Assembly (NCBI GenBank): GCA_017481745.1
Contig: JAFUOV010000005.1
Coordinates: forward strand, 232-64,231
DNA length: 64,000 nt
Reading direction: 5' to 3'
From: Bacteroidaceae bacterium
GTDB taxonomy: Bacteria > Bacteroidota > Bacteroidia > Bacteroidales > Barnesiellaceae_A
Below are positions 121 to 47,140 of the stretch, one piece after another. The notes beneath the pieces were generated by a model. It made no database searches, was not told the DNA's origin, and was given only the letters and a program-made list of their open reading frames with translations. Both the position numbers and the translations under genes were made by a program. The first letter of the stretch is position 1; the number at the start of each line of letters is the position of its first letter.

Positions 121-195
121 GGGCGTTTAGCTCAGCTGGTTTAGAGCATCTGCCTTACAAGCAGAGGGTCGGCGGTTCGAATCCGTCAACGCCCA
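121..195 (+). tRNA. tRNA-Val (anticodon TAC), copy 1
   Basis: Hand-folded cloverleaf: acceptor GGGCGTT/AACGCCC, D arm GCTC..GAGC, anticodon stem TCTGC/GCAGA with loop CTTACAA, T arm GGCGG-TTCGAAT-CCGTC, 75 nt. Confidence 0.93.
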
Positions 196-240
196 CCGAT
201 AGACAATCAAGCGCGATTGTTTTGAAAAAGAGATATTTAA

Positions 241-315
241 GGGCGTTTAGCTCAGCTGGTTTAGAGCATCTGCCTTACAAGCAGAGGGTCGGCGGTTCGA
301 ATCCGTCAACGCCCA
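241..315 (+). tRNA. tRNA-Val (anticodon TAC), copy 2
   Basis: Sequence identical to copy 1. Confidence 0.93.
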
Positions 316-348
316 CTCTTAAATCTCAATTATAATTACTACACTCAA

Positions 349-423
349 GGGCGTTTAGCTCAGCTGGGTTAGAGCATCTGCCTTACAAGCAGAGGGTCGG
401 CGGTTCGAATCCGTCAACGCCCA
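349..423 (+). tRNA. tRNA-Val (anticodon TAC), copy 3
   Basis: Same as copies 1 and 2 except one D-loop substitution (GGGTT vs GGTTT). Confidence 0.92.
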
Positions 424-8966: not shown

Positions 8967-9887
8967 ATGTCGAGATTTGAAGTCAATATATTGGGCTGTG
9001 GTGCAGCAACACCCACCATGCGACACTTGCCTACGGCTCAAGTGGTAAATGTGCGCGATAAGCTGTTTATGGTCGATTGTGGCGAGGGTGCGCAAGTCGC
9101 ATTCCGTCGTGCACACCTCAACTACAACCGGTTGGGGCACATCTTTCTCTCGCACCTGCATGGCGATCATTGCTTTGGTTTGTTTGGCTTGCTTTCTACC
9201 ATGGCACTTACGGGGCATACGGGCGAACTTGTTATTCATGCACACCCCGATGCCGAGGTGCTGTTGCGCCCGATGTTCGACTATTTCTGCCGCGAAAATC
9301 CCTTCGATATACGCTTCAATGCGCTGTCGCCGTCGTCGAGCGAGGTTGTATATAGCGACCGCAGCGTCAGTGTGCGCACCATTCCGCTCAAACATCGCAT
9401 ACCTACTTGCGGTTTCCTCTTTGAAGAGGCGGTTGGCGATCGACACTTGCGTGGCGATATGGTCGAGTTTTATAATATTCCCACCTATATGCGCGCCGCT
9501 ATCAAGCAAGGTGCCGACTTTGCGACGCCCGACGGCAAGGTCGTTCCCAACTCGCAACTCACATTGCCACCTACGCCGCCGGCTCGATATGCCTATTGTA
9601 GCGATACGATGTATAGCGAGGGCATTATCCCCTACATCGAGGGTGTCGACTTGTTGTATCACGAAGCAACCTATGCCGATGATGCCGAGGCTATGGCACG
9701 CACTACATACCACTCTACGGCACGTCAGGCTGCCCGTATTGCAGCCAAGGCTCACGTGGGTCGTCTGCTTTTGGGACACTTCTCGGCGCGATACAACGAT
9801 GAAAAGATACTCTTACAGCAAGCCCTTGAGGAGTTTGCTCATACCGAGCTTGCCCATGAGAATATGAATGTCGTTTTGCGACGATAG
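8967..9887 (+). CDS. rnz: Ribonuclease Z
   Basis: MBL motif HLHGDH, N-terminal ILGCGAATP, typical 306-aa RNase Z layout. Confidence 0.9.
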   Translation: MSRFEVNILGCGAATPTMRHLPTAQVVNVRDKLFMVDCGEGAQVAFRRAHLNYNRLGHIFLSHLHGDHCFGLFGLLSTMALTGHTGELVIHAHPDAEVLLRPMFDYFCRENPFDIRFNALSPSSSEVVYSDRSVSVRTIPLKHRIPTCGFLFEEAVGDRHLRGDMVEFYNIPTYMRAAIKQGADFATPDGKVVPNSQLTLPPTPPARYAYCSDTMYSEGIIPYIEGVDLLYHEATYADDAEAMARTTYHSTARQAARIAAKAHVGRLLLGHFSARYNDEKILLQQALEEFAHTELAHENMNVVLRR

Positions 9888-16015: not shown

Positions 16016-16066
16016 ATGAAAGATGAGAGTTTAGTGTTTAGAGTTTAGAGTTTAGTGTGTATGTAC

Positions 16067-16216
16067 AAAACCCCTCAGTCGCAGGGCGACAGCTCCCCTG
16101 TATTTTCCTCTCGGAAAACACAGAGGAGCAAAATATTACCATAACAGCAGGGTAACCTTTTCTGCCCCTGCGAGTGAAACGAGATAGGGGAAGTCCACGA
16201 AGTGGGAAGGGGTTTT
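16067..16216 (+). ncRNA. Candidate structured RNA core (array unit 2)
   Basis: Same architecture; P1 AAAACCCCT/AGGGGTTTT is a perfect 9 bp. Confidence 0.3.
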
Positions 16217-16334: not shown

Positions 16335-17564
16335 CTACGCTTTTTTCTCTAATTTCTTGCGGAGGATGTGTGCGGGGTAGCCGGCGGTGAGGGCGCCAAG
16401 GAGTAGTACGATAGCTGTAACGATGAGGGTGTCGCTCCACTCGATGCGTACGGGGTAGGCTTCGACGATGAAAGTATTGGCTTCGCCGTTACCCAGTTGC
16501 AGCAAGCCGAACTCTTGTTGCAGCCAGCATAGCAATGTGCCTACTACGAGTCCCGATAGAGCGCCTATCATAGAGATGAGCCAGCCCTCGGTCATGAAGA
16601 TGCGGGTGATGAGCCGGTCGTCGGCACCGAGCTTGCGCAGGGTGGCGATGTCGTCTTGCTTGTCGACGATGAGCATCGAGAGCGAGCCGACAATGTTGAA
16701 TGTGGCTATAAGCAGTATAAAGGCGAGGATAAGGAAGGTAATCCACTTTTCTATCTGTATCCAGCGGTACGACTCGCCGTTCTGCATGAGGCGGTCTTGG
16801 ATGATGTAGCCGTCGCCCAATCGTTGTTGCAGGCGGTCTATTACCTTGTGTGTCGATGCGCCCGGTGTGGTGCACAGCTCTATGCTTGTTGCCTCGGTGG
16901 GGTAGTCGAAGAGGGTGCGTGCATCGTCGAGGGGGATGTATATGACGTTGTCGTCGTATTGTGTCTGGTTGGTGTAGAACGTAGCCGACACGAAAAAACG
17001 TTGCGAGGTGAACGAGCCGGCGGGATTGGCAAGGTTGACACGACGGTTGCGTTGTGGGGCATATAGTTCGATGGGGCGGGCAAAGTTGGCACCGGCTTCG
17101 AGTTTAGCCCCCACGCCTATGCCTATGATGGCATACGACACAATCTCGTCTTGCAGCAGATATTCGCCATTGTATAGGGTACGGTCGAGGGCTATGCCTT
17201 GGTTGTAATCGAGGGGTATGCCCTTCACGACGACCGGCATCTGGCGTTGGTACACAGCCAAGGCTGTCTCTTCGATGACGGGGGTAAGGTATGCCACGTC
17301 GTCCCACGCAGCTATTTCGTCCCATGCCTCTATTGTGCCGTCGATGGTCTTGCCCTCGGCAGGAAGTATCTTTATCTCGGGCTGTATGTCGGATAGCAGC
17401 GAGTCGATGAGGCTCGAGAAGCCGTTATATACCGACAGTGTGCATATAAGTGCAGCCGTAATGAGTGCCACTCCGCACACCGATATAATAGATATGATGT
17501 TGATGGCAGAGTGCGATTTCTTGGAGAAAAGATACCTTGATGCTATGCGCAGGGCGAGAGACAT
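16335..17564 (-). CDS. ABC transporter permease, FtsX/LolE-like
   Basis: 409 aa, N-terminal TM helix, large periplasmic loop, C-terminal FtsX-type 3-TM bundle (DIATLRKLGA motif). Confidence 0.8.
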   Translation of the reverse strand: MSLALRIASRYLFSKKSHSAINIISIISVCGVALITAALICTLSVYNGFSSLIDSLLSDIQPEIKILPAEGKTIDGTIEAWDEIAAWDDVAYLTPVIEETALAVYQRQMPVVVKGIPLDYNQGIALDRTLYNGEYLLQDEIVSYAIIGIGVGAKLEAGANFARPIELYAPQRNRRVNLANPAGSFTSQRFFVSATFYTNQTQYDDNVIYIPLDDARTLFDYPTEATSIELCTTPGASTHKVIDRLQQRLGDGYIIQDRLMQNGESYRWIQIEKWITFLILAFILLIATFNIVGSLSMLIVDKQDDIATLRKLGADDRLITRIFMTEGWLISMIGALSGLVVGTLLCWLQQEFGLLQLGNGEANTFIVEAYPVRIEWSDTLIVTAIVLLLGALTAGYPAHILRKKLEKKA

Positions 17565-17577
17565 AGACGTTGCAGGG

Positions 17578-17913
17578 TTATTTGCGTAGCAAGTTGTCGA
17601 TGTTCTCGATATAGTCGAGCGAGTCGTCGAGGTAGAAGTGCAACTCGGGCATTTTGCGCAACTGGTATCTTACGCGTTGCGCCAGTTGGTAGCGTATCTC
17701 GCGCGACGAGGCGTTGACGGCTTCGATAGTGGCTTGTGCCTTCTCGGAGGGGAATACGCTCAAGTATGCCTTGGCGATGCTCAAGTCGGGGCTGATGCGC
17801 ACGATGCTCACCGATACCAATGTGCCGGGCATCTTGCGGGTTTCGGTCAAGAATATTTCGCTCAACTCCTTCTGTATCAAGCGACATATTTTGTTTTGTC
17901 TTGTTGTTTCCAT
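17578..17913 (-). CDS. rbfA: Ribosome-binding factor A
   Basis: 111 aa; motif-level resemblance to RbfA (R...I...L..I, SPDLSIAKAYLSV). Confidence 0.9.
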   Translation of the reverse strand: METTRQNKICRLIQKELSEIFLTETRKMPGTLVSVSIVRISPDLSIAKAYLSVFPSEKAQATIEAVNASSREIRYQLAQRVRYQLRKMPELHFYLDDSLDYIENIDNLLRK

Positions 17914-19067: not shown

Positions 19068-19095
19068 AACAAACAGCGGTTTCGTTATCTTTCGT

Positions 19096-19103
19096 TACCT
19101 TTG
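19096..19103 (+). promoter_or_regulatory. -7 promoter box TACCTTTG upstream of xerD
   Basis: Exact TAnnTTTG match. Confidence 0.45.
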
Positions 19104-19181
19104 CCCTTGCGATAGAACGAATATCGTCGTTGCATCGCGGCGTACAAAAGTAGTCAAAAAAATCGGAATAGCTAACGTATT

Positions 19182-20102
19182 ATGGCAGTAGTTACACAAG
19201 ATAGCTTGTTGCGGCGTTATGTGGCATACCTTCATCTCGAAAAAGGTATGAGCTACAATACCATCGAGGCGTATACCCGCGATGTCGAGAAGCTGTTGCG
19301 GTATATCGCCACCGACAACCTCTCGCTGCGCGATGTGGGTCGCAGTACGTTGCACGATTTTGTGTGTACGTTGCAGGATGTAGGCATCGGGGCGCGCTCG
19401 CAGGCGCGGGTTATCTCGGGTATCAAGTCGTTCTTCAAGTTTCTGAAACTCGAGGGTTACATTGCCGAGGATGCTGCCGATAGGTTGGAGATGCCGCAGA
19501 CGGGTCGTCATCTGCCCGAGGTGCTCACCGTCGACGAGATAGATGCCATGCTCTCGTCGATAGACCTCACCGCTGCCGAGGGGCAGCGCAACCGAGCCAT
19601 TCTCGAGGTGCTGTATAGTTGCGGACTGCGTGTGTCGGAGTTGGTGGGCTTGCGCCTCTCGCAGCTCTATCTTGCCGACGAGTATATATGTGTAGAGGGC
19701 AAGGGCAACAAGCAGCGGTTGGTGCCCATCTCGCCACAAGCTGTGCGCGAGATAGAGTTGTATATGCCTTGTCGCGCCCTGCTCGACATCAAGCCCGGCG
19801 AGGAAGACTACCTCTTCCTCAATCGTCGCGGCAGACACCTCACGCGGGTGATGGTGTTCTATATTGTGCGCGATGCTTGTGCGCGATGCGGCATAGAGAA
19901 GACGGTGAGCCCGCACACCTTGCGCCACTCGTTTGCCACCCATTTGCTCGAGAATGGTGCCAACTTGCGCGCCATACAGCAGATGCTGGGGCACGAAAGC
20001 ATCACCACCACCGAGATATATGTGCACCTCGACAAGCACTTCTTGCGACGTGAGGTGCTGGAGCATCATCCGCGCAACAACCCGCAAATATGTGATAAGT
20101 AG
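19182..20102 (+). CDS. xerD: Site-specific tyrosine recombinase XerD
   Basis: N-terminal SAM-like domain (YLHLEKGMSYNTIEAY), catalytic R..HTLRHSFATHLL..LLGH..TTEIYVH with terminal Tyr. Confidence 0.85.
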   Translation: MAVVTQDSLLRRYVAYLHLEKGMSYNTIEAYTRDVEKLLRYIATDNLSLRDVGRSTLHDFVCTLQDVGIGARSQARVISGIKSFFKFLKLEGYIAEDAADRLEMPQTGRHLPEVLTVDEIDAMLSSIDLTAAEGQRNRAILEVLYSCGLRVSELVGLRLSQLYLADEYICVEGKGNKQRLVPISPQAVREIELYMPCRALLDIKPGEEDYLFLNRRGRHLTRVMVFYIVRDACARCGIEKTVSPHTLRHSFATHLLENGANLRAIQQMLGHESITTTEIYVHLDKHFLRREVLEHHPRNNPQICDK

Positions 20103-22016: not shown

Positions 22017-24446
22017 ATGAATTGGAAAGCAAATGTAAAGAAGGCTTTGCCTTATGTGTTGTCAGTCGTATTTTTTGCGGTTGTGTCGTACCTCTATTTT
22101 GCACCCGAGATTTTCGAGGGCAAGATACTGTTTCAACACGATACACAGCAGGGTATAGCCATCGGTCAGGAGGCAAAGGCGTTTAAAGAGGCTACCGGCG
22201 AGACAACTCGCTGGACCAATACTACCTTCTCGGGTATGCCCACGTTCCAGATTGCGCCTTCGTATGCCAATTATCCCATTATCCGACACATCGAGCATGC
22301 CTATAGCTTGTGGATGACAAGTCCCGCTTCGCTCGTTTTCATTATGTTGGTGGGCTTCTTTATCTTTATGCTTTCCATGGGTTGTAAGTGGCACTATGCG
22401 GTGCTGGGCGCTATTGCCTACGCCTTTTCGTCCTACTTCTTTATCATCATTCAGGCAGGACACATCTGGAAGTTTGTAACCCTTGCATACATACCGCCTA
22501 CATTGGCAGGTATCGTGTGGGCATACCGCGGTCGCTACCTCTTGGGTGGCGGTGTGGCAGCACTCTTTGCCATGTTGCAGATTGCATCCAACCACATACA
22601 GATGTCGTATTACTTCCTCTTCGTTATCGTTGCTATGGTTGTAGCGTATGCCGTCGAACTGATACGCGAGAAGAAAACTGCTCAATTCCTCAAGGCGAGT
22701 GGTGTGCTCGTGGTGGCTGCGGCGCTTGCCATAGGTGCCAACTTACCCTCGCTATATCACACACAGAAGTATAGCAAGGAGACCATGCGTGGCGGACACT
22801 CGGAGCTTACTGCCACTACCGGTGGCGCTGCTGCCGAGTCTCAAAGCGGATTGAGCAAGGATTATATTACCCAATGGAGCTATGGCAAGATGGAGACTGT
22901 CTCGCTGCTTATTCCCAACATTAAGGGTGGCGCATCGGGTATGTTGTCGAGCCACGAGAAGGCTGTCGAGGCTGCATCGTCGTCGGTACGACCCTATCTG
23001 TCGCAAGTCAACAGCTATTGGGGCGACCAACCCGGCACTTCGGGTCCTGTGTATGTGGGTGCTATCATCTGCATGCTGTTTGTAATGGGATGCATCACCA
23101 TCAAGTCGCCCATGAAGTGGGCTTTGATAGCTGCCACAATCCTCTCGATACTCCTCTCTTGGGGCAAGAATTTTATGCCGCTTACCGATTGGTTTATCGA
23201 CTATTTCCCCATGTATAACAAGTTCCGTACGGTGTCGAGTATCTTGGTTGTTGCCGAGTTCTGCATCCCTGTGTTGGCTATCATGGCATTGAAACAATTC
23301 TTTGAAAGCCCCGACAAGAAGCAACTCAAGGCAATGTTTGTTGCCACCGGCATCACTGCCGGCATTGCACTCTTGGCGTATGTTGCACCCGGATTGTTCG
23401 GCTCGTTCACCAGCTGTTACGAGAACGATATGATAGCACAAAACGCTCAGTTGCGCCCGCTCTTCGACGATATTGCCGAGGCACGCCAAGCAGTGTTCAG
23501 TGCCGATGCCTTGCGCACATTATTATATATAGCTGCGGCTGCCCTCGTCATGTACCTCGTGGGCTCAGGTCGCTTCAAGAAACAATGGGCTTTGTTGTTG
23601 CTCGGCGTGTTGCTCATTGCCGATATGGGTACGGTGAACAAGCGCTACCTCAATGGCGACTCGTTTGTCGAAAATCGTCGCAAGAGCGATCCTTTCCCCA
23701 TGACACAAGTCGACAAGTATATCCTGCAAGACCCCGATCCCAACTATCGCGTGTTTAATCTTGCAGCCGGCGACCCCTTCAGCGATGCCCGCACGTCATA
23801 CTATCACAAGTCGGTAGGTGGCTATCATGCTGCCAAGTTGGCTCGTTATCAAGACCTTATCAACCGTCAACTCTCGCGCATGAGTGAGCCTGTGCTCAAT
23901 ATGCTCAATACCAAGTACTTCATCGTACCCTTGCAAGATGGCAATGTTACCGTACAGCAGAACCCCGATGCCATGGGCAATGCGTGGTTTGTCGACGAGG
24001 TGCAATGGGTAGATAATGCCGATGCCGAGATGGCTGCACTCGACACCTTCGACCCCGCTCGCACAGCCGTTGTCGACCGCCGATTTGCCGAGTTGATAGA
24101 TGATACCGCCGTTGCGGCAGCCGAGGGCGATACTATACACCTCACTTCATATTGCCCCAACGAGTTGCGCTACATAAGCCATGCCGCCAACGACCGCATT
24201 GCCGTATTCTCCGAGATATACTTCCCATGGGGCTGGCACGTTACCATCGACAGTGCACCCGTCAAAGAGGCTCGCGCCAACTACGTCTTGCGTGCGCTCA
24301 ACATCCCCGCCGGCACACACGAAATAGTATTCCGCTTCGAACCCACATCCATTGCCACTACCGAGCATATCGCCTTTGCCTCTATGGCAGGCATCCTACT
24401 CATGCTCCTCGCCGCCATCTTCGTGCGATGCAGGTTGAAAGGTTAG
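22017..24446 (+). CDS. YfhO-family large polytopic membrane protein (putative glycosyl-transfer/lipid-linked glycan function)
   Basis: About 12 or more TM helices in the N-terminal two thirds, soluble C-terminal domain, then a final TM helix. ATG 22017 is chosen because the tracked start at 21942 lies inside the upstream terminator. Confidence 0.6.
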   Translation: MNWKANVKKALPYVLSVVFFAVVSYLYFAPEIFEGKILFQHDTQQGIAIGQEAKAFKEATGETTRWTNTTFSGMPTFQIAPSYANYPIIRHIEHAYSLWMTSPASLVFIMLVGFFIFMLSMGCKWHYAVLGAIAYAFSSYFFIIIQAGHIWKFVTLAYIPPTLAGIVWAYRGRYLLGGGVAALFAMLQIASNHIQMSYYFLFVIVAMVVAYAVELIREKKTAQFLKASGVLVVAAALAIGANLPSLYHTQKYSKETMRGGHSELTATTGGAAAESQSGLSKDYITQWSYGKMETVSLLIPNIKGGASGMLSSHEKAVEAASSSVRPYLSQVNSYWGDQPGTSGPVYVGAIICMLFVMGCITIKSPMKWALIAATILSILLSWGKNFMPLTDWFIDYFPMYNKFRTVSSILVVAEFCIPVLAIMALKQFFESPDKKQLKAMFVATGITAGIALLAYVAPGLFGSFTSCYENDMIAQNAQLRPLFDDIAEARQAVFSADALRTLLYIAAAALVMYLVGSGRFKKQWALLLLGVLLIADMGTVNKRYLNGDSFVENRRKSDPFPMTQVDKYILQDPDPNYRVFNLAAGDPFSDARTSYYHKSVGGYHAAKLARYQDLINRQLSRMSEPVLNMLNTKYFIVPLQDGNVTVQQNPDAMGNAWFVDEVQWVDNADAEMAALDTFDPARTAVVDRRFAELIDDTAVAAAEGDTIHLTSYCPNELRYISHAANDRIAVFSEIYFPWGWHVTIDSAPVKEARANYVLRALNIPAGTHEIVFRFEPTSIATTEHIAFASMAGILLMLLAAIFVRCRLKG

Positions 24447-24875: not shown

Positions 24876-26945
24876 TCAGTCGTTCATCGATAGCAGGAAC
24901 TCTTCGTTTGACGATGTGCGCTCGAGGCGTTCTTTGAGGAACTCCATTGCCTCTACCGAGTTCATGTCGGCGAGGTAGCGACGTAGTATCCACATGCGAT
25001 TGAGTGTCTCCTTGTCGTGCAAGAGGTCGTCGCGGCGGGTGCTCGATGCGTTGATGTCGACGGCGGGGAAGATGCGCTTGTTGGACAACTTGCGGTCGAG
25101 CTGCAACTCCATGTTGCCTGTACCCTTGAACTCCTCGAAGATTACTTCGTCCATCTTCGAACCTGTGTCGATGAGTGCAGTGGCGATGATGGTGAGGCTA
25201 CCGCCGTTCTCGATGTTACGGGCTGCACCAAAAAAGCGCTTGGGCTTGTGCAGGGCGTTGGCATCGACACCACCCGACAGCACCTTGCCCGATGCGGGCG
25301 AAACGGTGTTGAATGCACGTGCCAAGCGGGTGATTGAGTCGAGCAATATCACAACGTCATGACCGCACTCTACCATGCGCTTGGCTTTCTCCAACACGAT
25401 GTTGGTAACTTTTACGTGGCGCTCGGCGGGCTCGTCGAAGGTAGAGGCTATGACCTCTGCCTTTACGCTGCGTGCCATGTCGGTAACCTCCTCGGGGCGC
25501 TCGTCGATGAGGAGTATGATCATATATACCTCGGGGTGGTTTTCCGATATTGCATTGGCTATATCTTTGAGAATTACTGTTTTACCGGTCTTTGGCTGAG
25601 CTACGATAAGACCACGTTGCCCCTTGCCTATGGGCGAGAACATATCGACTACGCGAGTAGAGAGGTTGCTCGACTTGCCGCTGGTGAGGTCGAACTTCTC
25701 GTTGGGGAAGAGCGGGGTGAGGTGGTCGAAGGGAACGCGGTCGCGCACGTACTCGGGCAAGCGACCGTTTATGCGCTCGACCTTGGCGAGGGGGAAGTAT
25801 TTTTCACCCTCTTTGGGCGGACGGATAGGACCTTCCACCACGTCGCCGGTCTTCAATCCGTAGAGTTTTATCTGCGATTGCGACACGTAGATGTCGTCGG
25901 GCGAGGTGAGGTAGTTGTAGTCGGGCGAGCGCAAGAAACCATAGCCGTCGGGCATCATTTCCAGTACGCCCGAGCCCATGAGTATGCCCTCGAAGTCGTA
26001 CAAACGCTCGCCGGGATACATGTCGTCGCGAGCGGGTTCGTCGCGGCGCACGTCGTCTTGTTGCGCATTGTTTTGCTTGTTGCGTTTGTTGTTCTGCTTG
26101 TTATTTTGTTTGTTGTTGCCCGGGTGGTTGTTGTTACCACCGTTGTTATTGTCGGGGTTGTTCTCTCTGTTTTGCGGGGTGAACTGCTGCTTGACGATGT
26201 TGCCGTTCTTGTCGCGCGAAATGAAACGTGTAGCCTTGGGGAAGAACGCCGACAGACCTGGGGTAGGGGGCAACGTGGGCTCTTGTGGCTTGGCAGCCTC
26301 GGTGTTGGCGGGCTCTTGTGCGGCGGGTTGCGCTGTGGGCTCGGGGGTAGCCGTTTCGGTAGCGACTGCTTGCTCCTCGGCAGGCTCGTTGGCTGCGGGC
26401 TTCTCCTCGCGGTTGATGCGCTTGCGACCGCGACGAGGTTTCTCCTCGACGGGCTCTTGCTCCTCGGTTGAGGGCGCTGTGGTAGCAGCCGGCTCGGCAG
26501 CTACATCGGCAGTGGGCTCGATGGCATCCTCGGCTTTTTGTTTCTTCTTGCGACCCGGGCGACCCTTTTGTGCGGGAGCTTCAGCAGCCTCGGCAGGCTC
26601 GGCAGTGGCAACTTGGGGTTGCGCATTGTTCTCGGGCTTTGCTTCCTCCACATTATTAATATTAGGCTCGGCAGCGACCTCGGTGGTGGGAACTTCGAGC
26701 GGCAACGAGGGTTGCTCGTCGGTAGTATCTTCGTTCTCTTTTTCGGTCTTGCCGGTGCGAGTCTTTTTCTTCCGTTTTTTGCCTTCGCCTTGCGAAGTCT
26801 TGCTGGCAGTGATAGCCTGCTCGTCGAGAATGGTGTATACCAAGTCGTCGGTGTCGATGTTGTTGCCGACAGCTATGCCCAATTGTGCAGCTATCTCTTT
26901 CAACTCGGGTAAAGTTTTAGCTTTGAGTTCAAAAATGTTATACAT
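24876..26945 (-). CDS. rho: Transcription termination factor Rho with a ~260-aa low-complexity insertion
   Basis: N-terminal [19 protein letters not shown], cold-shock-like [14 protein letters not shown], Walker A PKTGKT, C-terminal RecA-like domain. Start moved to M12 of the tracked ORF. Confidence 0.95.
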
Positions 26946-27086
26946 TTGATATTGTGTTTTTTCGTAGCGACGATACATAAACGCGCATAAAGCAATGCTG
27001 TATCGTGTGTTTTACTAAAATAAATAACGAAAATCTTGTGAAAAACAGGACATTCGAGCGAATGACCTTCCTGAAATATTACGTTG

Positions 27087-34895: not shown

Positions 34896-36659
34896 ATGTA
34901 CAGGACTAAAACTTGTGGCGAATTGCGCTTGAGCGATGCCGGAACAACCGTAACCTTGTGCGGTTGGGTGCAACGTACTCGTAAAATGGGCGGTATGACA
35001 TTCGTCGACTTGCGCGACCGTTATGGTCTTACTCAGTTGGTATTCAACCAAGAGGTGAATGCCCCTTTGTGTGAACAAGCCAATAAACTCGGACGTGAAT
35101 ATGTGATACAAATTACCGGAGAAGTTGCCGAGCGTAGCAATAAAAACTCGCGCATGGAAACCGGCGAGATAGAGATTATCGTGAGCAATCTCAACGTGTT
35201 GAATGCCTCTATCGTGCCTCCGTTTACTATCGAAGACGAGACCGATGGTGGCGACGACTTGCGCATGCAATATCGTTACCTCGACTTGCGCCGTAATGCT
35301 GTTCGTCGCAATCTCGAGTTGCGCCACAAAATGGCTTTTGAGGTACGCCGTTACCTCGATGCACAGAACTTCCTCGAAGTGGAAACTCCTGTGCTGATAA
35401 AATCTACTCCCGAAGGTGCGCGCGACTTTGTTGTGCCTTCGCGCATGAATCCCGGTGAGTTCTACGCTTTGCCCCAATCGCCCCAAACACTCAAGCAGTT
35501 GCTCATGGTGTCGGGCTTCGACCGCTACTTCCAGATTGTGAAGTGCTTCCGCGACGAGGACTTGCGTGCCGACCGTCAACCCGAGTTTACTCAAATCGAC
35601 TGCGAGATGTCGTTTGTTGAGCAAGAAGATGTGCTCAATGTCTTTGAGGGTATGGCAAAACACTTGTTCAAATACATCAAAAATATAGACTTTACCGAGC
35701 CCTTCCCCCGTATGGCGTGGGCAGATGCCATGAAATACTATGGTAGCGACAAGCCCGATACCCGCTTCGAAATGAAGTTTGTTGAGTTGAAAGACCTTAC
35801 CGAGGGTAAGAACTTTGTGGTATTCGACAGCGTACCCTATGTAGGTGGTATCTGCTGTAAAGGTTGTGCGGGATATACTCGCAAGCAAATCGACGAGTTG
35901 ACCGACTTTGTGAAACGTCCCCAGATAGGTGCCAAAGGCTTGGTGTGGGTGCGCTACGACGAAGGTGGTAACTTCAAATCGTCGGTCGACAAGTTCTACA
36001 CTGCCGACGACTTGCGTGCTTGGGCTGAGCGCTTCAATGCCGAGCCCGGCGACTTGATGCTTATCCTTGCAGGCGACACAATGAAGACTCGCAAGGCTTT
36101 GTGCGAGTTGCGCCTCGAAATGGGTAGCCGCCTCGGATTGCGCGACAAGAATGTATATTCGCCCCTTTGGGTTATCGACTTCCCCCTCTTCGAGTGGGAC
36201 GACGAGACACAACGCTTCTATGCGATGCACCACCCCTTCACATCGCCCAAACCCGAGGATATTCACTTGCTCGAAAGCGATCCCGGTGCTGTTCGCGCCA
36301 ATGCCTACGATATGGTGGTGAATGGTGTTGAGCTGGGTGGCGGTTCTATCCGTATACACGACAGTAAGTTGCAAGATACAATGTTCAAGTTGCTCGGTTT
36401 CACACCCGAACAAGCGCAAGCACAATTTGGCTTCTTGATGAATGCCTTTAAGTATGGTGCACCTCCTCATGGCGGTTTGGCTTTTGGTCTCGACCGCTTT
36501 GTGTCAATCTTTGCAGGACTCGATTCTATTCGCGACTGTATTGCATTCCCCAAGAACAACTCGGGTCGCGACGTGATGATGGATGCGCCCTCGACCATTG
36601 CTCCCGAGCAATTGGAAGAGTTGTGCATAGATGTGTGTCTTAAAGAGGAACAAGCATAA
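34896..36659 (+). CDS. aspS: Aspartate--tRNA ligase
   Basis: Class II aaRS motifs ([34 protein letters not shown]), N-terminal OB fold. Confidence 0.97.
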
Positions 36660-36663
36660 TCAT

Positions 36664-37755
36664 ATGCCCACCATACGCGACATAATTGCAGCGATAGAAG
36701 ATTTTGCCCCATTGGCACTGCAAGAGAGCTACGACAATGCCGGGCTGCAAGTAGGCGATGCCTCGCTTGCAGCTACCGGTGTGTTGCTCTGTGTAGATGT
36801 TACCGAGGCTGTTGTCGACGAGGCAATAGAGCGAGGATGCAACCTTATTGTGGCACATCACCCCTTGTTGTTCCGCCCTCTCAAGCGCATTACAGGCGGT
36901 AACTATATAGAGCGAGTGGTAATGAAAGCCTTGCGCAACGATGTCGCCATTTATGCTGCACATACCAACCTCGATGCAGTGGCAGTAAATCATCGTTGGG
37001 CGCAAATGTTGGCTCTCACCGATGTCGAGGTGTTGCAACCTACTGTCGATATGCTATATAAGTTGGTTGTATATGTGCCCGAAGCTCACACCGATGCTGT
37101 GCGCCAAGCACTCTTTGATGCAGGCGCCGGCAATATAGGTAATTACGATAGTTGCAGCTATGTTGCTCAAGGAGTAGGCACATTCTGCGCAGGAGAGAAT
37201 ACGCAACCCTATTGTGGTGAGAGAGGCGAGTTGCATCATGAGCCCGAGAGTAGGGTAGAGGTGGTTTTACCACGCTATCTCAAGAGTCGCGTTGTGCGCG
37301 CCTTGTTGGCAGTACACCCCTATGAAGAGCCCGCCTACGACCTCATACCCATAGCCAACGACTATACACGTGCCGGTATGGGAGTAGTGGGTAACTTGCC
37401 ACATCCGGTAGATGCATTAGAGCTGTTGCAACACGTAAAAGAGCAGTTGCATTGTGGCGCTATCCGTCATAATGCCACATCGGGCAAGATGGTACAACGT
37501 GTAGCATTGTGTGGTGGCTCGGGTAGCTCGCTCATAGGCAATGCGATGGCAGCCGGTGCCGATATCTTCATTACAGGCGAGATAGGTTATCATCAATTCT
37601 TCGGTTACGAAGGTCGTCTTATAATGGCTGAAACCGGTCATTATGAGAGCGAGCAGCACACAAAAGAAATTTTTTACGAGGTTATTACAAAAAAATTCCC
37701 TAACTTTGCGCCCTACTACGCAAAAGTAGAAACAAATCCGATAAAATATCTGTAA
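36664..37755 (+). CDS. Nif3-like dinuclear metal centre protein
   Basis: NIF3 signature (WDNAGLQVG-type YDNAGLQVGD, VAHHPLLF, TGEIGYH); start at MPTIRDI. Confidence 0.85.
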   Translation: MPTIRDIIAAIEDFAPLALQESYDNAGLQVGDASLAATGVLLCVDVTEAVVDEAIERGCNLIVAHHPLLFRPLKRITGGNYIERVVMKALRNDVAIYAAHTNLDAVAVNHRWAQMLALTDVEVLQPTVDMLYKLVVYVPEAHTDAVRQALFDAGAGNIGNYDSCSYVAQGVGTFCAGENTQPYCGERGELHHEPESRVEVVLPRYLKSRVVRALLAVHPYEEPAYDLIPIANDYTRAGMGVVGNLPHPVDALELLQHVKEQLHCGAIRHNATSGKMVQRVALCGGSGSSLIGNAMAAGADIFITGEIGYHQFFGYEGRLIMAETGHYESEQHTKEIFYEVITKKFPNFAPYYAKVETNPIKYL

Positions 37756-38630: not shown

Positions 38631-38638
38631 TACTTTTG
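38631..38638 (+). promoter_or_regulatory. -7 promoter box TACTTTTG immediately upstream of the 38645 palindrome
   Basis: Exact TAnnTTTG match 142 nt upstream of the portal-like ATG. Confidence 0.35.
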
Positions 38639-38644
38639 ATATAG

Positions 38645-38684
38645 GAGGGTGTGCCAAAATTTTGGCACACCCTCTTTGTGTTTG
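38645..38684 (+). terminator. Perfect 30-nt palindrome + T-rich tract: terminator of the nif3 operon and/or leader attenuator of the portal-like gene
   Basis: GAGGGTGTGCCAAAA/TTTTGGCACACCCTC followed by TTTGTGTTTG. Confidence 0.7.
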
Positions 38685-38779
38685 TCAATTATATCACGCT
38701 TCAAATTCTCTCTATCGCAGTGAGTCGCTGTGCTGTGGCGGTTACTTTGTGGTCGAAAAATTACTTTAAATTATCGACT

Positions 38780-40702
38780 ATGGATTTTATTGATTATCGC
38801 ACATTCAATCGTAAACGGCTCATGCCTACATCCGATATAAAGGATATGGGCGAAGCAGCTCCCTTTGGCAAGCAAGATAGCGAGGTGCTGCATGAGGCAT
38901 ACTCGGCATGGGAGGCGTTATCTCATTATCGGTCGCAGCGTACACGCAATCGCAACTATACATTTGGCAGGCAGTGGTGCGATCCCGTAAAGCTACCCGA
39001 TGGGCGTGTTGTTACCGAGGAGCATTATCTGCACGAGCAGGGAAAAGTACCTCTCAAAAACAACCTGATACGACAACTTGTCAAGAGCGTACTCGGGCAG
39101 TTTCGCAGTGCGCAGACCGAGCCTGTTTGTGTGGCTCGTGAACGTAACGAGCAGCTTTTGGGCGAACTGATGAGTGCTGTCATGCAATATGTCTATCAGC
39201 ACAACAAGATGTACGAGTTGGATAGTCGTACGCTCGAGGAGTTCCTCATCTCGGGTTCATGCTTTCATAAGATAGGTTATAGCACTCGCCGCGGCAAGAC
39301 CGATGTGTGGGTCGATACCGTACAACCTTCGCGCATCTTCTTCAATAATATTGAGGATTGCCGACTGTGGGATTGCACCATGATAGGCGAGCTACACGAT
39401 ATGAAACTTGCCGACCTTATAGCTCGTTTCTGCAAGGGCGATGAGGCAAAGGCGCGTATATTGCACGATATGTATGGTGATGTTACCGAGGAGAATATCT
39501 TCAACGAGCACGACTTCCTAAACGGTCGCCGAAACGATACTCTCGACTTTTATATGCCCGCATCGTCCGATTGTTGTCGTGTGATAGAGGTGTGGCGATT
39601 GGAGTCGCGCGAGCGTTTGCGTTGCCACGATACCTTGTCGGGCGAGTATTATAAGATAGAAACCGCCGAGAAAGCGGCTATTGACAAGGAGAACAAAGAG
39701 CGTATATCGCAAGCCAAGAAACAAGGGATAGATGCAGCCCAAGTGCCATTGATAGAGTGTGAGTGGTTTATCGACCATTTTTGGTACTATCGTTTCTTCT
39801 CGCCGCTGGGGCATATTCTCGATGAGGGCGAAACACCCTATTGGCATGGCGAGCATCCATATAGCTTCCGTCTTTACCCCTTGCTCGATGGCGAGGTACA
39901 CTCGTTTGTAGAGGATGTGATAGACCAACAACGCTATGTCAACCGCCTTATCACGATGATAGATTTTATCATGGGCAGTAGTGCCAAGGGTGTTTTGCTC
40001 TTCCCCGAAGACCAAATCCCCGACGGTATGACACTCGAAGATATTGCCTCCGAGTGGACTCGATACAATGGCGTGATACTCTTCCGTCCCAAGCCCGGCA
40101 GCACCATGCCGCAGCAGATTTCGGTCAACGCCACCAATGTGGGCGCGTATGAGTTATTGTCGTTGCAGATGCGTTTGCTTGAAGATATTTCGGGTGTACA
40201 TAGTGCCATGCAGGGCAAGCCTGTTGCAAGCGGTACGCCATCGTCGCTCTATGCGCAGCAAGTACAATATTCGGCTACCAATCTGCTCGATATCTTCGAG
40301 TCGTTCAAGACCTTTAGAGAGGAGCGCGACAACAAGATACTCAAGACCATTCGTCAGTTCTACACCGAGCAACGATATATACAGATTGCCGGTGAAGATA
40401 GTGCTGCATTAGCAGAGATTACGCCCGAGCAGGTACAATACTCCGAGGTCGACATCATTATCAGCGAGTCGGCAGCAGCTCCGGCATTCCGCCAATCGTC
40501 CAACGAATTGTTGCTCGCCCTTTTCCGCAGCGGGCATATTACGTTGCAAACGCTGTTGCAAACAGGCTCGTTCCCCTTTGCCGACAAGTTGTTGCAACGG
40601 ATTGATGCCGAGCAGCAAGAGCTCGAGCAGAAAACTCAAGAACAGATGCAGCAATTACAGCAACTGCAACAGTTACAAAAGTCGGCATCACCAAAAGATT
40701 GA
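38780..40702 (+). CDS. Phage portal-like protein (P22/podovirus-type), orphan
   Basis: 640 aa. By-memory resemblance to P22-type portals: N-terminal NYTFGRQW motif, NNLIRQLVKSV..P helix, central LLFPEDQIP motif, Gln-rich C-terminal helix EQQELEQKTQEQMQQLQQLQQLQ. Not a computed alignment. Confidence 0.55.
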   Translation: MDFIDYRTFNRKRLMPTSDIKDMGEAAPFGKQDSEVLHEAYSAWEALSHYRSQRTRNRNYTFGRQWCDPVKLPDGRVVTEEHYLHEQGKVPLKNNLIRQLVKSVLGQFRSAQTEPVCVARERNEQLLGELMSAVMQYVYQHNKMYELDSRTLEEFLISGSCFHKIGYSTRRGKTDVWVDTVQPSRIFFNNIEDCRLWDCTMIGELHDMKLADLIARFCKGDEAKARILHDMYGDVTEENIFNEHDFLNGRRNDTLDFYMPASSDCCRVIEVWRLESRERLRCHDTLSGEYYKIETAEKAAIDKENKERISQAKKQGIDAAQVPLIECEWFIDHFWYYRFFSPLGHILDEGETPYWHGEHPYSFRLYPLLDGEVHSFVEDVIDQQRYVNRLITMIDFIMGSSAKGVLLFPEDQIPDGMTLEDIASEWTRYNGVILFRPKPGSTMPQQISVNATNVGAYELLSLQMRLLEDISGVHSAMQGKPVASGTPSSLYAQQVQYSATNLLDIFESFKTFREERDNKILKTIRQFYTEQRYIQIAGEDSAALAEITPEQVQYSEVDIIISESAAAPAFRQSSNELLLALFRSGHITLQTLLQTGSFPFADKLLQRIDAEQQELEQKTQEQMQQLQQLQQLQKSASPKD

Positions 40703-40724
40703 ATACTTGCCGCCCCGTCGTTTG

Positions 40725-40760
40725 AGAGTAGAAAATCCGACCTGATTTTCTACTCTTTTT
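40725..40760 (+). terminator. Intrinsic terminator after the portal-like gene
   Basis: 12-bp stem AGAGTAGAAAAT/ATTTTCTACTCT followed by TTTTT. Confidence 0.8.
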
Positions 40761-40841
40761 GCACTTGTTATAGGAGTTCTTGCAGTATGGTTTATTCTGT
40801 ATTATCGCTCTCTTTTGTTTTGATATATCGCAATTCTTTAT

Positions 40842-40883: not shown

Positions 40884-41756
40884 ATGAATATGAAGAGATT
40901 GACATTCAGCGCCGTAGTGCTTGTAATGGTTGTTTGCAATGCTTTGGCTGCTACTCCCGATAGCGTGCGCTATCACCATTACGATACCGATACTGCAACG
41001 GTAAATAATATATTGGAAAAAACTCGCGCTGCCAACCTTGCAACACCTGCCGAGCGCGTAGTCTTTATAGCCAAGCAATTTGTGGGTACTCCCTATAAAG
41101 CAGCAACCCTCGAGTACGATGAAGAGTTGCTTACGGTCAATCTTTCGCAAATGGATTGTACCACATTGGTCGAGAATGTTATAGCACTTGCCGGCACAGC
41201 GGCTGTAGATACTGCCACATTTGATGATTTTGTTGCCAAGCTGCAAAACATACGTTATCGTAATGGTGTTGTAGATGGATATGCTTCACGTTTGCACTAC
41301 TCGAGCGATTGGGTTGCCGATAACGTAAAACGCGGCAATCTTGTAGAAGCAACCGGTAAATTCCCGGCGGCTGTAAAGCAGTCGAAACGACTTGATTATA
41401 TTTCGACTCATAGTCGCGATTATCAAGCCTTGCGCGAAGATACCGCTGCATGCCAACAAATCAAAGATATCGAGAAGCAATACAACCCTTTCCTTTTCTC
41501 GTATGTCCCCAAAAATATGATTGCTGCGCCTGCCGTACAGAAAAACCTCAAGGATGGCGACATACTGCTCATTACCACCTCGACAAAGGGTCTCGATGTG
41601 ATGCACATGGGCATTGTGGTTTTTAAAAGCAGTAAGCCATTTTTGCTGCACGCTACGACAAAAGGCAATGTTGTTAAGGTTGACTCGCAACCGCTGGCTA
41701 TGTACCTTTCGTCGCTCAAGTCGGCAACCGGTATTCGTGTTGTGAGAGTGTTGTAA
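40884..41756 (+). CDS. Secreted DUF1460-like protein (N-acetylmuramoyl-L-alanine amidase-like fold)
   Basis: Signal peptide; FVGTPYKAATLE...MDCTTLVENV motif remembered from DUF1460. Confidence 0.55.
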   Translation: MNMKRLTFSAVVLVMVVCNALAATPDSVRYHHYDTDTATVNNILEKTRAANLATPAERVVFIAKQFVGTPYKAATLEYDEELLTVNLSQMDCTTLVENVIALAGTAAVDTATFDDFVAKLQNIRYRNGVVDGYASRLHYSSDWVADNVKRGNLVEATGKFPAAVKQSKRLDYISTHSRDYQALREDTAACQQIKDIEKQYNPFLFSYVPKNMIAAPAVQKNLKDGDILLITTSTKGLDVMHMGIVVFKSSKPFLLHATTKGNVVKVDSQPLAMYLSSLKSATGIRVVRVL

Positions 41757-47067: not shown

Positions 47068-47140
47068 TGATCCGCCTGGGGCTCGAACCCAGGACCCCAA
47101 CATTAAAAGTGTTGTGCTCTACCAGCTGAGCTAGCGAATC
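47068..47140 (-). tRNA. tRNA-Lys (anticodon TTT)
   Basis: The reverse complement folds as GATTCGC-TA-GCTC..GAGC-A-CAACA-CTTTTAA-TGTTG-GGGTC-CTGGG-TTCGAGC-CCCAG-GCGGATC-A. Confidence 0.92.

Follow-up and report, generated by a model that had tools for sequence, protein, structure and literature searches.

Introduction

The closest described relatives of the gene considered here are the portal proteins of three cultivated temperate Bacteroides phages of ≈65 kb, BKO1-TP3, BS-TP4 and BF1-TP2 (PMC12694917; accessions PQ571269, PQ571277 and PQ571263, respectively). Besides an integrase and an endolysin, these phages encode a capsid protein of the DUF5309 type, giant internal proteins and a diversity-generating retroelement. 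Here, we describe a portal gene from a contig of a Bacteroidaceae bacterium (assembly GCA_017481745.1, contig JAFUOV010000005.1). The whole stretch of DNA that was analyzed, referred to as the window, comprises 64,000 nucleotides (64 kb), and the portal gene occupies positions 38780..40702 of its + strand. The product belongs to the same Pfam and PHROG family as the three phage portals, has the same length and shares the family-conserved residues. In contrast, the phage genes are part of a ≈65-kb genome, where they lie beside the genes for the large terminase subunit (TerL), the major capsid protein (MCP), giant internal proteins, endolysin and integrase, whereas the window gene falls in a separate clade and co-diverges with host genes.

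The wider P22 gp1-type family includes the portals of P22, Sf6, GP4, Pan3, crAss001 and N4. The window protein matches almost the full length of the family profile, and structural searches with Foldseek return only portals; unlike these genes, however, it is not located in a morphogenesis module beside terminase and capsid genes. Such a module is kept in part in related genomes of the Coprobacter type, where relic loci contain TerL and a tail nozzle and no MCP.

Several known systems make use of part of a phage. Phage satellites, such as phage-inducible chromosomal islands (PICIs), capsid-forming PICIs (cf-PICIs) and P4, carry genes that can be switched on by the late functions of a helper, and gene transfer agents (GTAs) such as RcGTA of Rhodobacter capsulatus have some of their genes outside the main cluster. 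Like satellites, the relic loci hold a subset of packaging and morphogenesis genes, for which the rest would come from another element; satellites, however, are mobile islands with integrase and replication genes, whereas the relic genes are fixed, dispersed, integrase-free and co-diverging with the host. GTAs consist of phage-derived structural and packaging genes that are inherited vertically under purifying selection (PMC8987985). The portal described here is likewise phage-derived, vertically inherited and under purifying selection, but known GTAs keep a head–tail cluster with a capsid gene, whereas the relic loci have no detected capsid gene and their parts can be scattered singly.

Prophage-derived genes can also be kept by host selection (PMC8987985, PMC7744054), a feature shared with domesticated defective prophages and tailocins. 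In those, the tail genes usually survive, whereas here it is the head-vertex and packaging genes. A survey of prophage decay found portal and terminase to be among the first genes lost (PMC7744054), and a review of recruited mobile elements describes no exapted portal or terminase outside GTAs (PMC8987985). In the literature, we found no prior account of orphan or domesticated portals, of GTAs in Bacteroidales or Barnesiellaceae, or of a Barnesiella portal or terminase. Domestication of prophages is already known; for this set of genes we found no account. The pattern is the opposite of the usual decay, in that vertex and packaging genes persist singly, intact and slow-evolving, while the capsid and the rest are apparently gone.

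We propose, with a probability of roughly 0.6, that the portal belongs to a domesticated, dispersed portal-vertex and packaging kit that would be either GTA-like or capsid-using. If the parts do work together, an abundant order of gut bacteria would possess a domesticated phage machine built to a new plan, and this would matter for how genes move and how phages are resisted in gut communities. Direct tests are within reach, because both Barnesiella viscericola DSM 18177, which carries the portal, and Coprobacter fastidiosus, which carries a relative of the terminase, are in culture.

Identity and Structure of the Portal Protein

The gene runs uninterrupted from an ATG at 38780 to a stop codon at 40702 on the + strand, and encodes 640 residues, as an earlier interpretation of the DNA made from its letters alone (the sequence-only reading) had described; most of its listed orthologues are also full length. 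A mechanical open reading frame (ORF) call opens the longest frame at a GTG at 38651, with the same stop. Since a start at 38651 would overlap the upstream terminator hairpin (see below), the real start is at 38780. This ATG and the first residues that follow are kept in orthologues, and the same start is called on public contigs.

The sequence-only reading had taken the product for a P22/podovirus-type portal, and the Pfam, PHROG, PDB and Foldseek searches all returned portals. The Pfam family P22_portal (PF16510) was matched with E = 1.3e-45 and 156.5 bits, against a cut-off of 26.1 bits, over profile positions 7–579 of 594. The PHROG profile match was phrog_156 (portal) at 4e-81, and the PDB sequence match was 8jov, the solved portal of phage GP4, at 1e-9. 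Sequence identity to the solved portals is only 10–17%. Searches of PADLOC and NCBIfam with the portal protein gave no match, and no signal peptide or membrane segment was seen on reading the translation. The assignment as a P22-type portal is secure at the family level. The motifs RNRNYTFGRQW, NNLIRQLVKSV, GVLLFPEDQIP and EQQELEQKTQEQMQQLQQLQQLQ, from which the portal had originally been recognized, are all present in the translation, but they are not established hallmarks of P22 portals, and the family assignment therefore rests on the profile matches.

An AlphaFold2 (AF2) model was built on a shallow alignment of 45 orthologues. The mean predicted local distance difference test score (pLDDT) was 57, with 80–89 in the β-rich wing, and the model was usable for local fold matching only. 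Used as a monomer in Foldseek, it retrieved podophage portals exclusively (Pan3, crAss001, VP1, GP4, P22, Sf6 and N4), with E-values down to 8e-14 and a probability of 1.0, but with TM-scores of only 0.2–0.39.

The most conserved part of the protein is a core at residues 341–500 (39800..40279, + strand), with mean conservation of 0.74–0.97 per 20-residue block among the orphan orthologues described below; the same region is also among the best conserved in phage-borne relatives. In the AF2 model it includes helices at residues 372–399, 456–474 and 487–527, with pLDDT below 50 over most of the region. By analogy with the general architecture of portals, these long helices and the intervening loop would form the stem, clip and tunnel region. 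Near the C-terminus, the model has a long helix at residues 601–635 with a glutamine-rich end (40580..40684, + strand; block pLDDT 64–76). The helix noted in the sequence-only reading thus recurs in the model, although its suggested likeness to the P22 barrel is an analogy only. The final 20 residues are variable in the orphan and phage groups alike. Overall, the conservation profile of the orphan group parallels that of phage portals, peaking at residues 341–500 in both, and 51 of the 52 positions that are at least 85% conserved across 126 phage-type relatives carry the same residue in the orphan clade.

Genomic Setting

A total of 50 ORFs were called over the window, and ≈46 of these have ordinary cellular Pfam domains; the products include ribosomal proteins, FtsY, MenF/MenD, Rho, TilS, ribosomal protein S1, topoisomerase and glycoside hydrolases. 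Upstream of the portal gene are aspS, a NIF3 gene and a gene for a Zn_ribbon_9/CT398-type zinc-ribbon protein; downstream are an AmiA-like gene (former DUF1460), an aldehyde dehydrogenase gene (Aldedh) and UvrD, all six by Pfam matches that agree with the neighbors first named from the sequence, followed by an ornithine/diaminopimelate decarboxylase gene (OrnDC). Profile scans found no capsid, terminase, tail, lysis or integrase family anywhere in the window, that is, over 38.8 kb upstream and 23.3 kb downstream of the portal, and no attachment-site (att) remnant or integrase was found near the portal. When 28 BKO1-TP3 proteins from the virion, late-region and flanking genes were compared with the window by tblastn, only the portal matched. 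The absence of phage genes, claimed by the sequence-only reading for about 25 kb on either side, hence extends to the whole window, and no contiguous prophage emerged once the flanks had been annotated by ORF calling and profile scans.

The gene context of the window is repeated on 13 independent contigs, and an orthologue of the portal is present in the complete genome of the isolate B. viscericola DSM 18177; the locus is thus not an assembly artefact.

Descent and Selection

More than 7,400 database proteins match the window portal. The best 120 of these, from which length and identity figures were taken, are 59–100% identical to it and 612–690 residues long. A neighbor-joining tree of 170 representatives places every cluster with an identity of at least 58% to the window protein, 44 in all, in a single clade, here called the orphan clade, which spans Barnesiella, Coprobacter and uncultured ruminant-gut Bacteroidales. 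The gene context was cellular for each clade member examined. Branches adjoining the clade include one (P0122) that is 84.5% identical to the BKO1-TP3 portal, and the two closest outgroup portals are in tightly packed operons of unannotated genes that are phage-like. BKO1-TP3 (gp54), BS-TP4 and BF1-TP2 were the only three records of close phage relatives, with 40–45% identity over 90–94%. (Scanning viral contigs with the window protein alone yielded none, and scanning genome contigs yielded only 7 loci, the peptide patterns being too specific.) The window portal is descended from a podovirus-like temperate Bacteroidales phage, and its prophage has been lost.

The order portal–AmiA–Aldedh–UvrD–OrnDC is common to loci with 65–85% portal identity. 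In the window and in loci L022 and L023, the portal is preceded by the zinc-ribbon gene and followed by AmiA, Aldedh, UvrD and OrnDC. The same four genes follow the portal in L013, where the preceding gene is Omp85, and in L021, where the portal lies between a DEAD helicase gene and a gene for a 701-residue protein that separates it from AmiA. In Barnesiella and UMGS48 (L004, L005 and L008), the portal is followed by Aldedh, and in B. viscericola DSM 18177 and Barnesiella sp. An55 it is found between miaA with an outer-membrane protein gene on one side and a ferritin gene on the other.

Ratios of nonsynonymous to synonymous substitution rates (dN/dS) were calculated by the Nei–Gojobori method; because dS exceeded 0.9 in all pairs, the ratios are approximate, and the comparison with neighboring genes is the robust part. 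The portal values, 0.056 (window vs. L022), 0.081 (window vs. L023) and 0.084 (B. viscericola vs. Barnesiella sp. An55), are comparable to those that the same pairs of genomes yield for housekeeping neighbors, namely ≈0.06 (Aldedh), 0.08 (NIF3) and 0.03–0.06 (UvrD). The portal dN (0.087, 0.139, 0.231 and 0.261) climbs alongside that of Aldedh (0.073, 0.116, 0.175 and 0.213), and on the basal branch (L007 vs. L019) the portal is 68% identical and SufS 69%.

There was little sign of pseudogenization, either in the lengths of the best 120 relatives given above or in the window's own 90% cluster, where 12 of the 15 listed alleles are full length and 98.9–100% identical. The other three are a 631-residue form, a 410-residue fragment without residues 1–230 on a 1,967-bp contig, and a 495-residue form. 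(The last of these, P0473, whose longest contig is 222,514 bp, consists of residues 1–495 only, with 99.8% identity; it could be a genuine truncation, a frameshift or an assembly error.) With intact ORFs, low dN/dS and no integrase nearby, the gene is indeed not an obviously decaying prophage fragment, as the sequence-only reading had held.

The portal is thus a monocistronic gene of the chromosome that is passed on vertically, and purifying selection acts on it as strongly as on its housekeeping neighbors. Taken together, monophyly, synteny, low dN/dS and the kept residues indicate that a working protein, still performing the task of a portal, has been inherited vertically.

Companion Genes in Related Genomes

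In the basal subclade (Coprobacter sp. L007, L019, L020 and L038), a gene for a protein of ≈860 residues adjoins the portal on the opposite strand. The protein is a full-length homologue of phage gp34 and of phrog_32516. Its family has no Pfam match and no PDB match by profile search, and was identified by structure comparison only. The AF2 model, with a pLDDT of 89.4 and a predicted template modeling score (pTM) of 0.84, retrieved podophage nozzle, tail-tube or tail-hub chains or tail complexes as its top 27 Foldseek matches (E = 8e-17 to 5e-8), including those of SU10 and A4, the crAss001 muzzle, T7 gp12, the P22 gp10–gp26 complex and the Sf6 gp8:gp14N complex. Judged by this model, the gp34-like family is a predicted tail nozzle. 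In metagenome-assembled genomes (MAGs) of ruminant-gut "Bacteroidaceae bacterium" (L025–27), the nozzle gene stands alone between SppA–LpxK and MenE–MenC–MenB.

Downstream of the Coprobacter portal is a gene for a 678-residue homologue (45% identity) of phage gp51 that matches PHROGs of the terminase large subunit (phrog_2 at 8.8e-18, plus phrog_24361 and phrog_5989). Relatives of this TerL that are 55–82% identical occur in C. fastidiosus, C. tertius and many "Bacteroidaceae bacterium" MAGs. A metagenome scan with the TerL alignment gave 80 loci, which a tblastn screen split into two clean classes. TerLs no more than ≈50% identical to the query are in complete phage modules with an MCP, in which a giant protein, gp45, gp46, MCP, gp48–50, TerL, gp52/53, the portal and the gp55 giant protein are found; the portals of these modules are 42–50% identical to that of the window. 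TerLs 57–65% identical to P0594, on the other hand, are found on contigs of 142–383 kb, with no MCP and no portal less than 10 kb away. By their Pfam flanks, these genes have cellular neighbors: in L030, SecA is followed by genes for proteins of 788, 190 and 174 residues on the − strand, an 82-residue protein and TerL on the + strand, and then histidine kinases, and in L037, TerL lies between a 7TM-HD receptor gene with a methylase gene and a TonB-dependent receptor gene.

Several smaller relic families recur: a gp57-like protein of ≈170 residues, a protein of 165–190 residues, a gp55-like protein of ≈670–890 residues and the 82-residue protein just upstream of TerL. The gp57-like protein adjoins TerL in phage contigs, and by this position only it is a candidate small terminase. 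In B. viscericola, a trio of gp57-like, 166-residue and gp55-like proteins is encoded ≈4 kb from the portal, and in L038 the whole relic set is within ≈13 kb, beside the Suf operon, with no capsid gene detectable in the part of the contig covered. The relic parts are contiguous in Coprobacter-type genomes, whereas in other genomes they occur one at a time, surrounded by housekeeping genes. A tblastn search of the relic loci with the phage MCP as query gave no match at any of them, although a diverged MCP would escape such a search.

The sizes of the longest contigs offer hints that these genes share a genome with the portal. A portal from the same cluster as the window protein and nozzle P0408 have the same longest-contig size (222,514 bp), as do portal P0036 and nozzle P0433 (143,102 bp), portal P0025 and TerL P0665 (98,206 bp, six contigs each), and portal P0011 and TerL P0592 (68,921 bp, two contigs each). 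A further coincidence at 3,768 bp (portal P0022 and nozzle P0303) was rejected as impossible, because both genes would not fit; since this one cannot be real, the other size matches remain hints only. The portal, called an orphan by the sequence-only reading, is an orphan in this window, but probably not in its genome, since relatives keep terminase, nozzle and other parts.

Two labels in the BKO1-TP3 record look wrong or missing. The gp51 gene (L017 22548–24662, − strand, corresponding to PQ571269.1 37872–39986) is labeled "tail spike protein" in GenBank, in a record without an annotated terminase, and gp34 (L024 16999–19647), whose family model matches podophage tail nozzles, is annotated as "hypothetical".

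Transcription Unit and Upstream Signature

The left edge of the portal unit is marked by a strong terminator hairpin (38643..38676, + strand) that ends the aspS–NIF3–Zn-ribbon unit, with a 15-bp stem containing 8 GC pairs, followed by a T-rich tail. Folding of 38636–38690 gave a free energy (dG) of −29.3 kcal/mol and z = −7.75, with none of 200 shuffled sequences as stable. A second terminator hairpin (40724..40757, + strand), 22 nt past the stop codon of the portal, has a 14-bp AT-rich stem, a 6-nt loop and a T-run; it was missed by a consensus terminator scan because the stem is GC-poor. Here, folding of 40703–40765 gave −18.5 kcal/mol and z = −5.29, again with 0 of 200 shuffles as stable. 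The flanking terminators that the sequence-only reading had placed at 38645 and 40725 are thus supported by folding, and the two hairpins, together with a conserved promoter-like signature, bear out its description of the gene as a monocistronic unit. A scan of the window with Rfam revealed only tRNAs, and nothing in the portal flanks.

The signature, TATCGCA-N23-TACTTTG (38713..38749, + strand), is placed 31 nt upstream of the ATG and is conserved in orthologous loci. Its boxes, TA(T/C)CGCA and T(A/T)CTTTG, are 23 nt apart, end about 30 nt before the ATG and are invariant in seven orthologous portal loci, among which the upstream neighbor genes differ. In 1.79 Mb scanned, the strict pattern had 12 matches, 11 of them at the pre-portal position, compared to 0–3 in shuffled sequences, and a relaxed pattern had 25 matches, compared to 7.4 expected. 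The relaxed intergenic matches that were rightly placed included 10 portal upstream regions, Barnesiella loci among them, plus the L020 portal. The relaxed pattern also precedes the stand-alone nozzle gene of L025, where the CTCTATCGCA decamer and the spacing are identical to those of the window; it is found 35 nt before the ATG of TerL in L029 and L030, and before the gp49–TerL operon of L041. The other relaxed matches are inside ORFs or distant from gene starts on the same strand, which fits a chance background. The phage loci were considered as a source of the signature and rejected, because the matches there are inside ORFs and at chance level, except for that in L041.

The signature TATCGCA-N23-TTTG is common to the portal, the nozzle and one terminase lineage. 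Its 3′ box resembles the Bacteroidetes −7 element, TAnnTTTG, and we infer from the sequence that the signature functions as a promoter. The usual upstream element of Bacteroidetes promoters is a TTTG at −33. The 5′ box of the signature differs from this, which suggests that it may be recognized by a dedicated factor.

A different conserved element, the CAAATATCACC box, is found in the divergent region between the gp57-like trio and the 82-residue protein/TerL operon (L030 9529–9652; L038 3228–3343; L028 about 9460–9693; L011 about 16060–16110). In B. viscericola, it is present as an inverted repeat, ATATTTGCGACAAATAT. The box looks like a putative operator, distinct from the TATCGCA-N23-TTTG signature.

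A Proposed Dispersed Portal-Vertex and Packaging Kit

These observations are best accommodated by one ancient prophage that was reduced to its unique-vertex and packaging parts, which are scattered yet intact in several lineages. According to the reading that we favor, the portal would still assemble as a dodecameric ring, as expected from the retention of 51 of the 52 family-conserved residues, and the ring, the terminase and the nozzle that have been retained would act jointly, as a portal-vertex/DNA-packaging kit under common regulation. Portal, terminase and nozzle amount to a packaging motor and a tail hub with no container, so that the shell must come from elsewhere. It might be supplied by an unlinked, so far undetected domesticated capsid gene, resulting in a GTA-like particle, or by an infecting related phage, in which case capsid piracy would interfere with the phage and mobilize host DNA. 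Either of these sub-mechanisms, taken alone, is at best a tentative proposal. In its most specific form, a fixed, dispersed, capsid-less kit of portal, TerL, candidate small terminase, nozzle and internal protein, switched on via a retained phage-type promoter, would package host DNA in the shells of an infecting phage; this we consider rather unlikely. If true, such a pirating kit would amount to a satellite that has been domesticated and has lost its mobility, and it would both hinder the phage and disseminate genes of the host. The sequence-only reading had left a choice between a domesticated ring and a part used in trans. The co-retained terminase, nozzle and other parts favor a part used together with other phage-derived parts, and a lone ring with a new job is less favored.

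A number of findings weigh against the kit. No capsid, scaffold or adaptor gene was found in any of the relic loci, so a particle-forming function is without a demonstrated shell, and neither terminase nor nozzle is present in the 64-kb window. That they occur in the window's own genome is inferred from relatives and from the size coincidences. B. viscericola DSM 18177, which has the portal, is not among the 120 listed of 175 nozzle matches, so the portal may persist where there is no nozzle. Divergence is also much more rapid in the nozzle than in the portal (33–43% vs. 68–72% identity in the same genome pairs), and the signature is absent upstream of TerL in L037, L035, L038 and L007. Finally, the dN/dS values are approximate at the dS values of >0.9 seen in all pairs, and the portal was modeled poorly by AF2, with a pLDDT of 57 that does not establish the oligomeric state or the domain labels.

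Other explanations dispense with the partners of the portal. It could be a lone anti-phage decoy that is produced upon infection by a related phage and replaces the portal of that phage in its procapsids, yielding dead particles in a dominant-negative manner. The nearest relatives are indeed portals of temperate Bacteroidales phages, mimicry would need the family-conserved residues that are kept (51 of 52), a promoter-like signature of its own precedes the monocistronic gene, and B. viscericola may hold a portal without a nozzle. However, defense genes usually turn over fast in variable islands, whereas the portal is as slow as a housekeeping gene and sits at one syntenic locus; it has no match in PADLOC, and co-assembly is doubtful at 40–47% identity to known phage portals. 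Since a decoy would also leave the retention of terminase and nozzle with the same upstream signature unexplained, we regard it as improbable. Slightly less probable again is a ring exapted by itself for a new role in the cell unrelated to virions, such as a DNA or protein channel or a scaffold, with terminase and nozzle as independent leftovers. No other relic gene evolves as slowly as the portal, none besides it lies in the window, and B. viscericola keeps it, while TerL and nozzle were seen neither nearby nor among the listed matches. On the other hand, one would expect a change of function to loosen or redirect the constraint on phage-specific surfaces, yet 51 of 52 phage-conserved residues are kept; the protein has no signal peptide or membrane segment, and TerL is conserved about as well as the portal and shares the signature in one lineage.

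A non-functional prophage remnant, either not yet decayed or acquired independently, would account for the prophage origin of the gene and for the differing subsets of phage genes kept by the lineages, as progressive decay would produce. It is nevertheless very improbable in view of dN/dS values of 0.06–0.08, an ORF that is intact in the best 120 relatives across genus- to family-level divergence, and a monophyletic clade with shared synteny and a conserved promoter-like signature. Moreover, degraded prophages normally lose portal and terminase first (PMC7744054), and no integrase or att remnant was found nearby. The chance that a complete prophage was overlooked in the window is close to nil, given that ≈46 of its 50 ORFs have cellular Pfam domains and that the 28 BKO1-TP3 proteins match only the portal by tblastn.

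Neighboring Genes and Other Features

The AmiA-like gene (40884..41756, + strand) trails the portal in several lineages and its product has an N-terminal signal-like sequence. It diverges much faster than its neighbors, with ≈50% identity where the portal has 70%, and dN/dS of 0.10–0.17. It was considered as a phage lysin and rejected, as it has no homologue in the related phage, only a marginal PHROG match (0.0015), and the signal-like N-terminus; PADLOC gave no match for it. For the zinc-ribbon neighbor, PADLOC gave weak matches to the coiled-coil parts of JetC/LmuB-type models, consistent with a coiled coil of its own.

The 701-residue gene of L021 (12067–14172, + strand), between the portal and the AmiA-like gene, is present in one lineage only. 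It has no Pfam or PHROG match and no similarity to the other loci compared, and was therefore rejected as a relic gene. A Barnesiella contig (L016 5192–5858, − strand) has a HigB-like toxin and a helix-turn-helix (HTH) antitoxin just past the ferritin gene downstream of the portal; B. viscericola DSM 18177 lacks this pair at the equivalent position.

Elsewhere in the window, three ORFs have no Pfam match: 22017–24446 (+ strand, 809 residues), 19095–20069 (− strand, 324 residues) and 17543–17887 (− strand, 114 residues). The first two have no PHROG or PADLOC match either; the 114-residue ORF was scanned against Pfam only. The GC content of the window is 0.51–0.56 at 16–20 kb and 24–28 kb, compared to ≈0.47 elsewhere. 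The longest ORF for NIF3 (374 residues, ATG at 36631) has an overlap of 29 nt with the 3′ end of aspS (36631–36664, + strand), while public calls of NIF3 start 11 codons further downstream (363 residues). Three tandem tRNA genes, two of them with identical scores, are located near the start of the window (121–423, + strand), and a fourth (47068–47140, − strand) is downstream of the OrnDC gene. Rho (24876–26978, − strand, 700 residues) has a long insertion of ≈280 residues between the N-terminal domain (residues 17–55) and the RNA-binding domain (residues 336–409).

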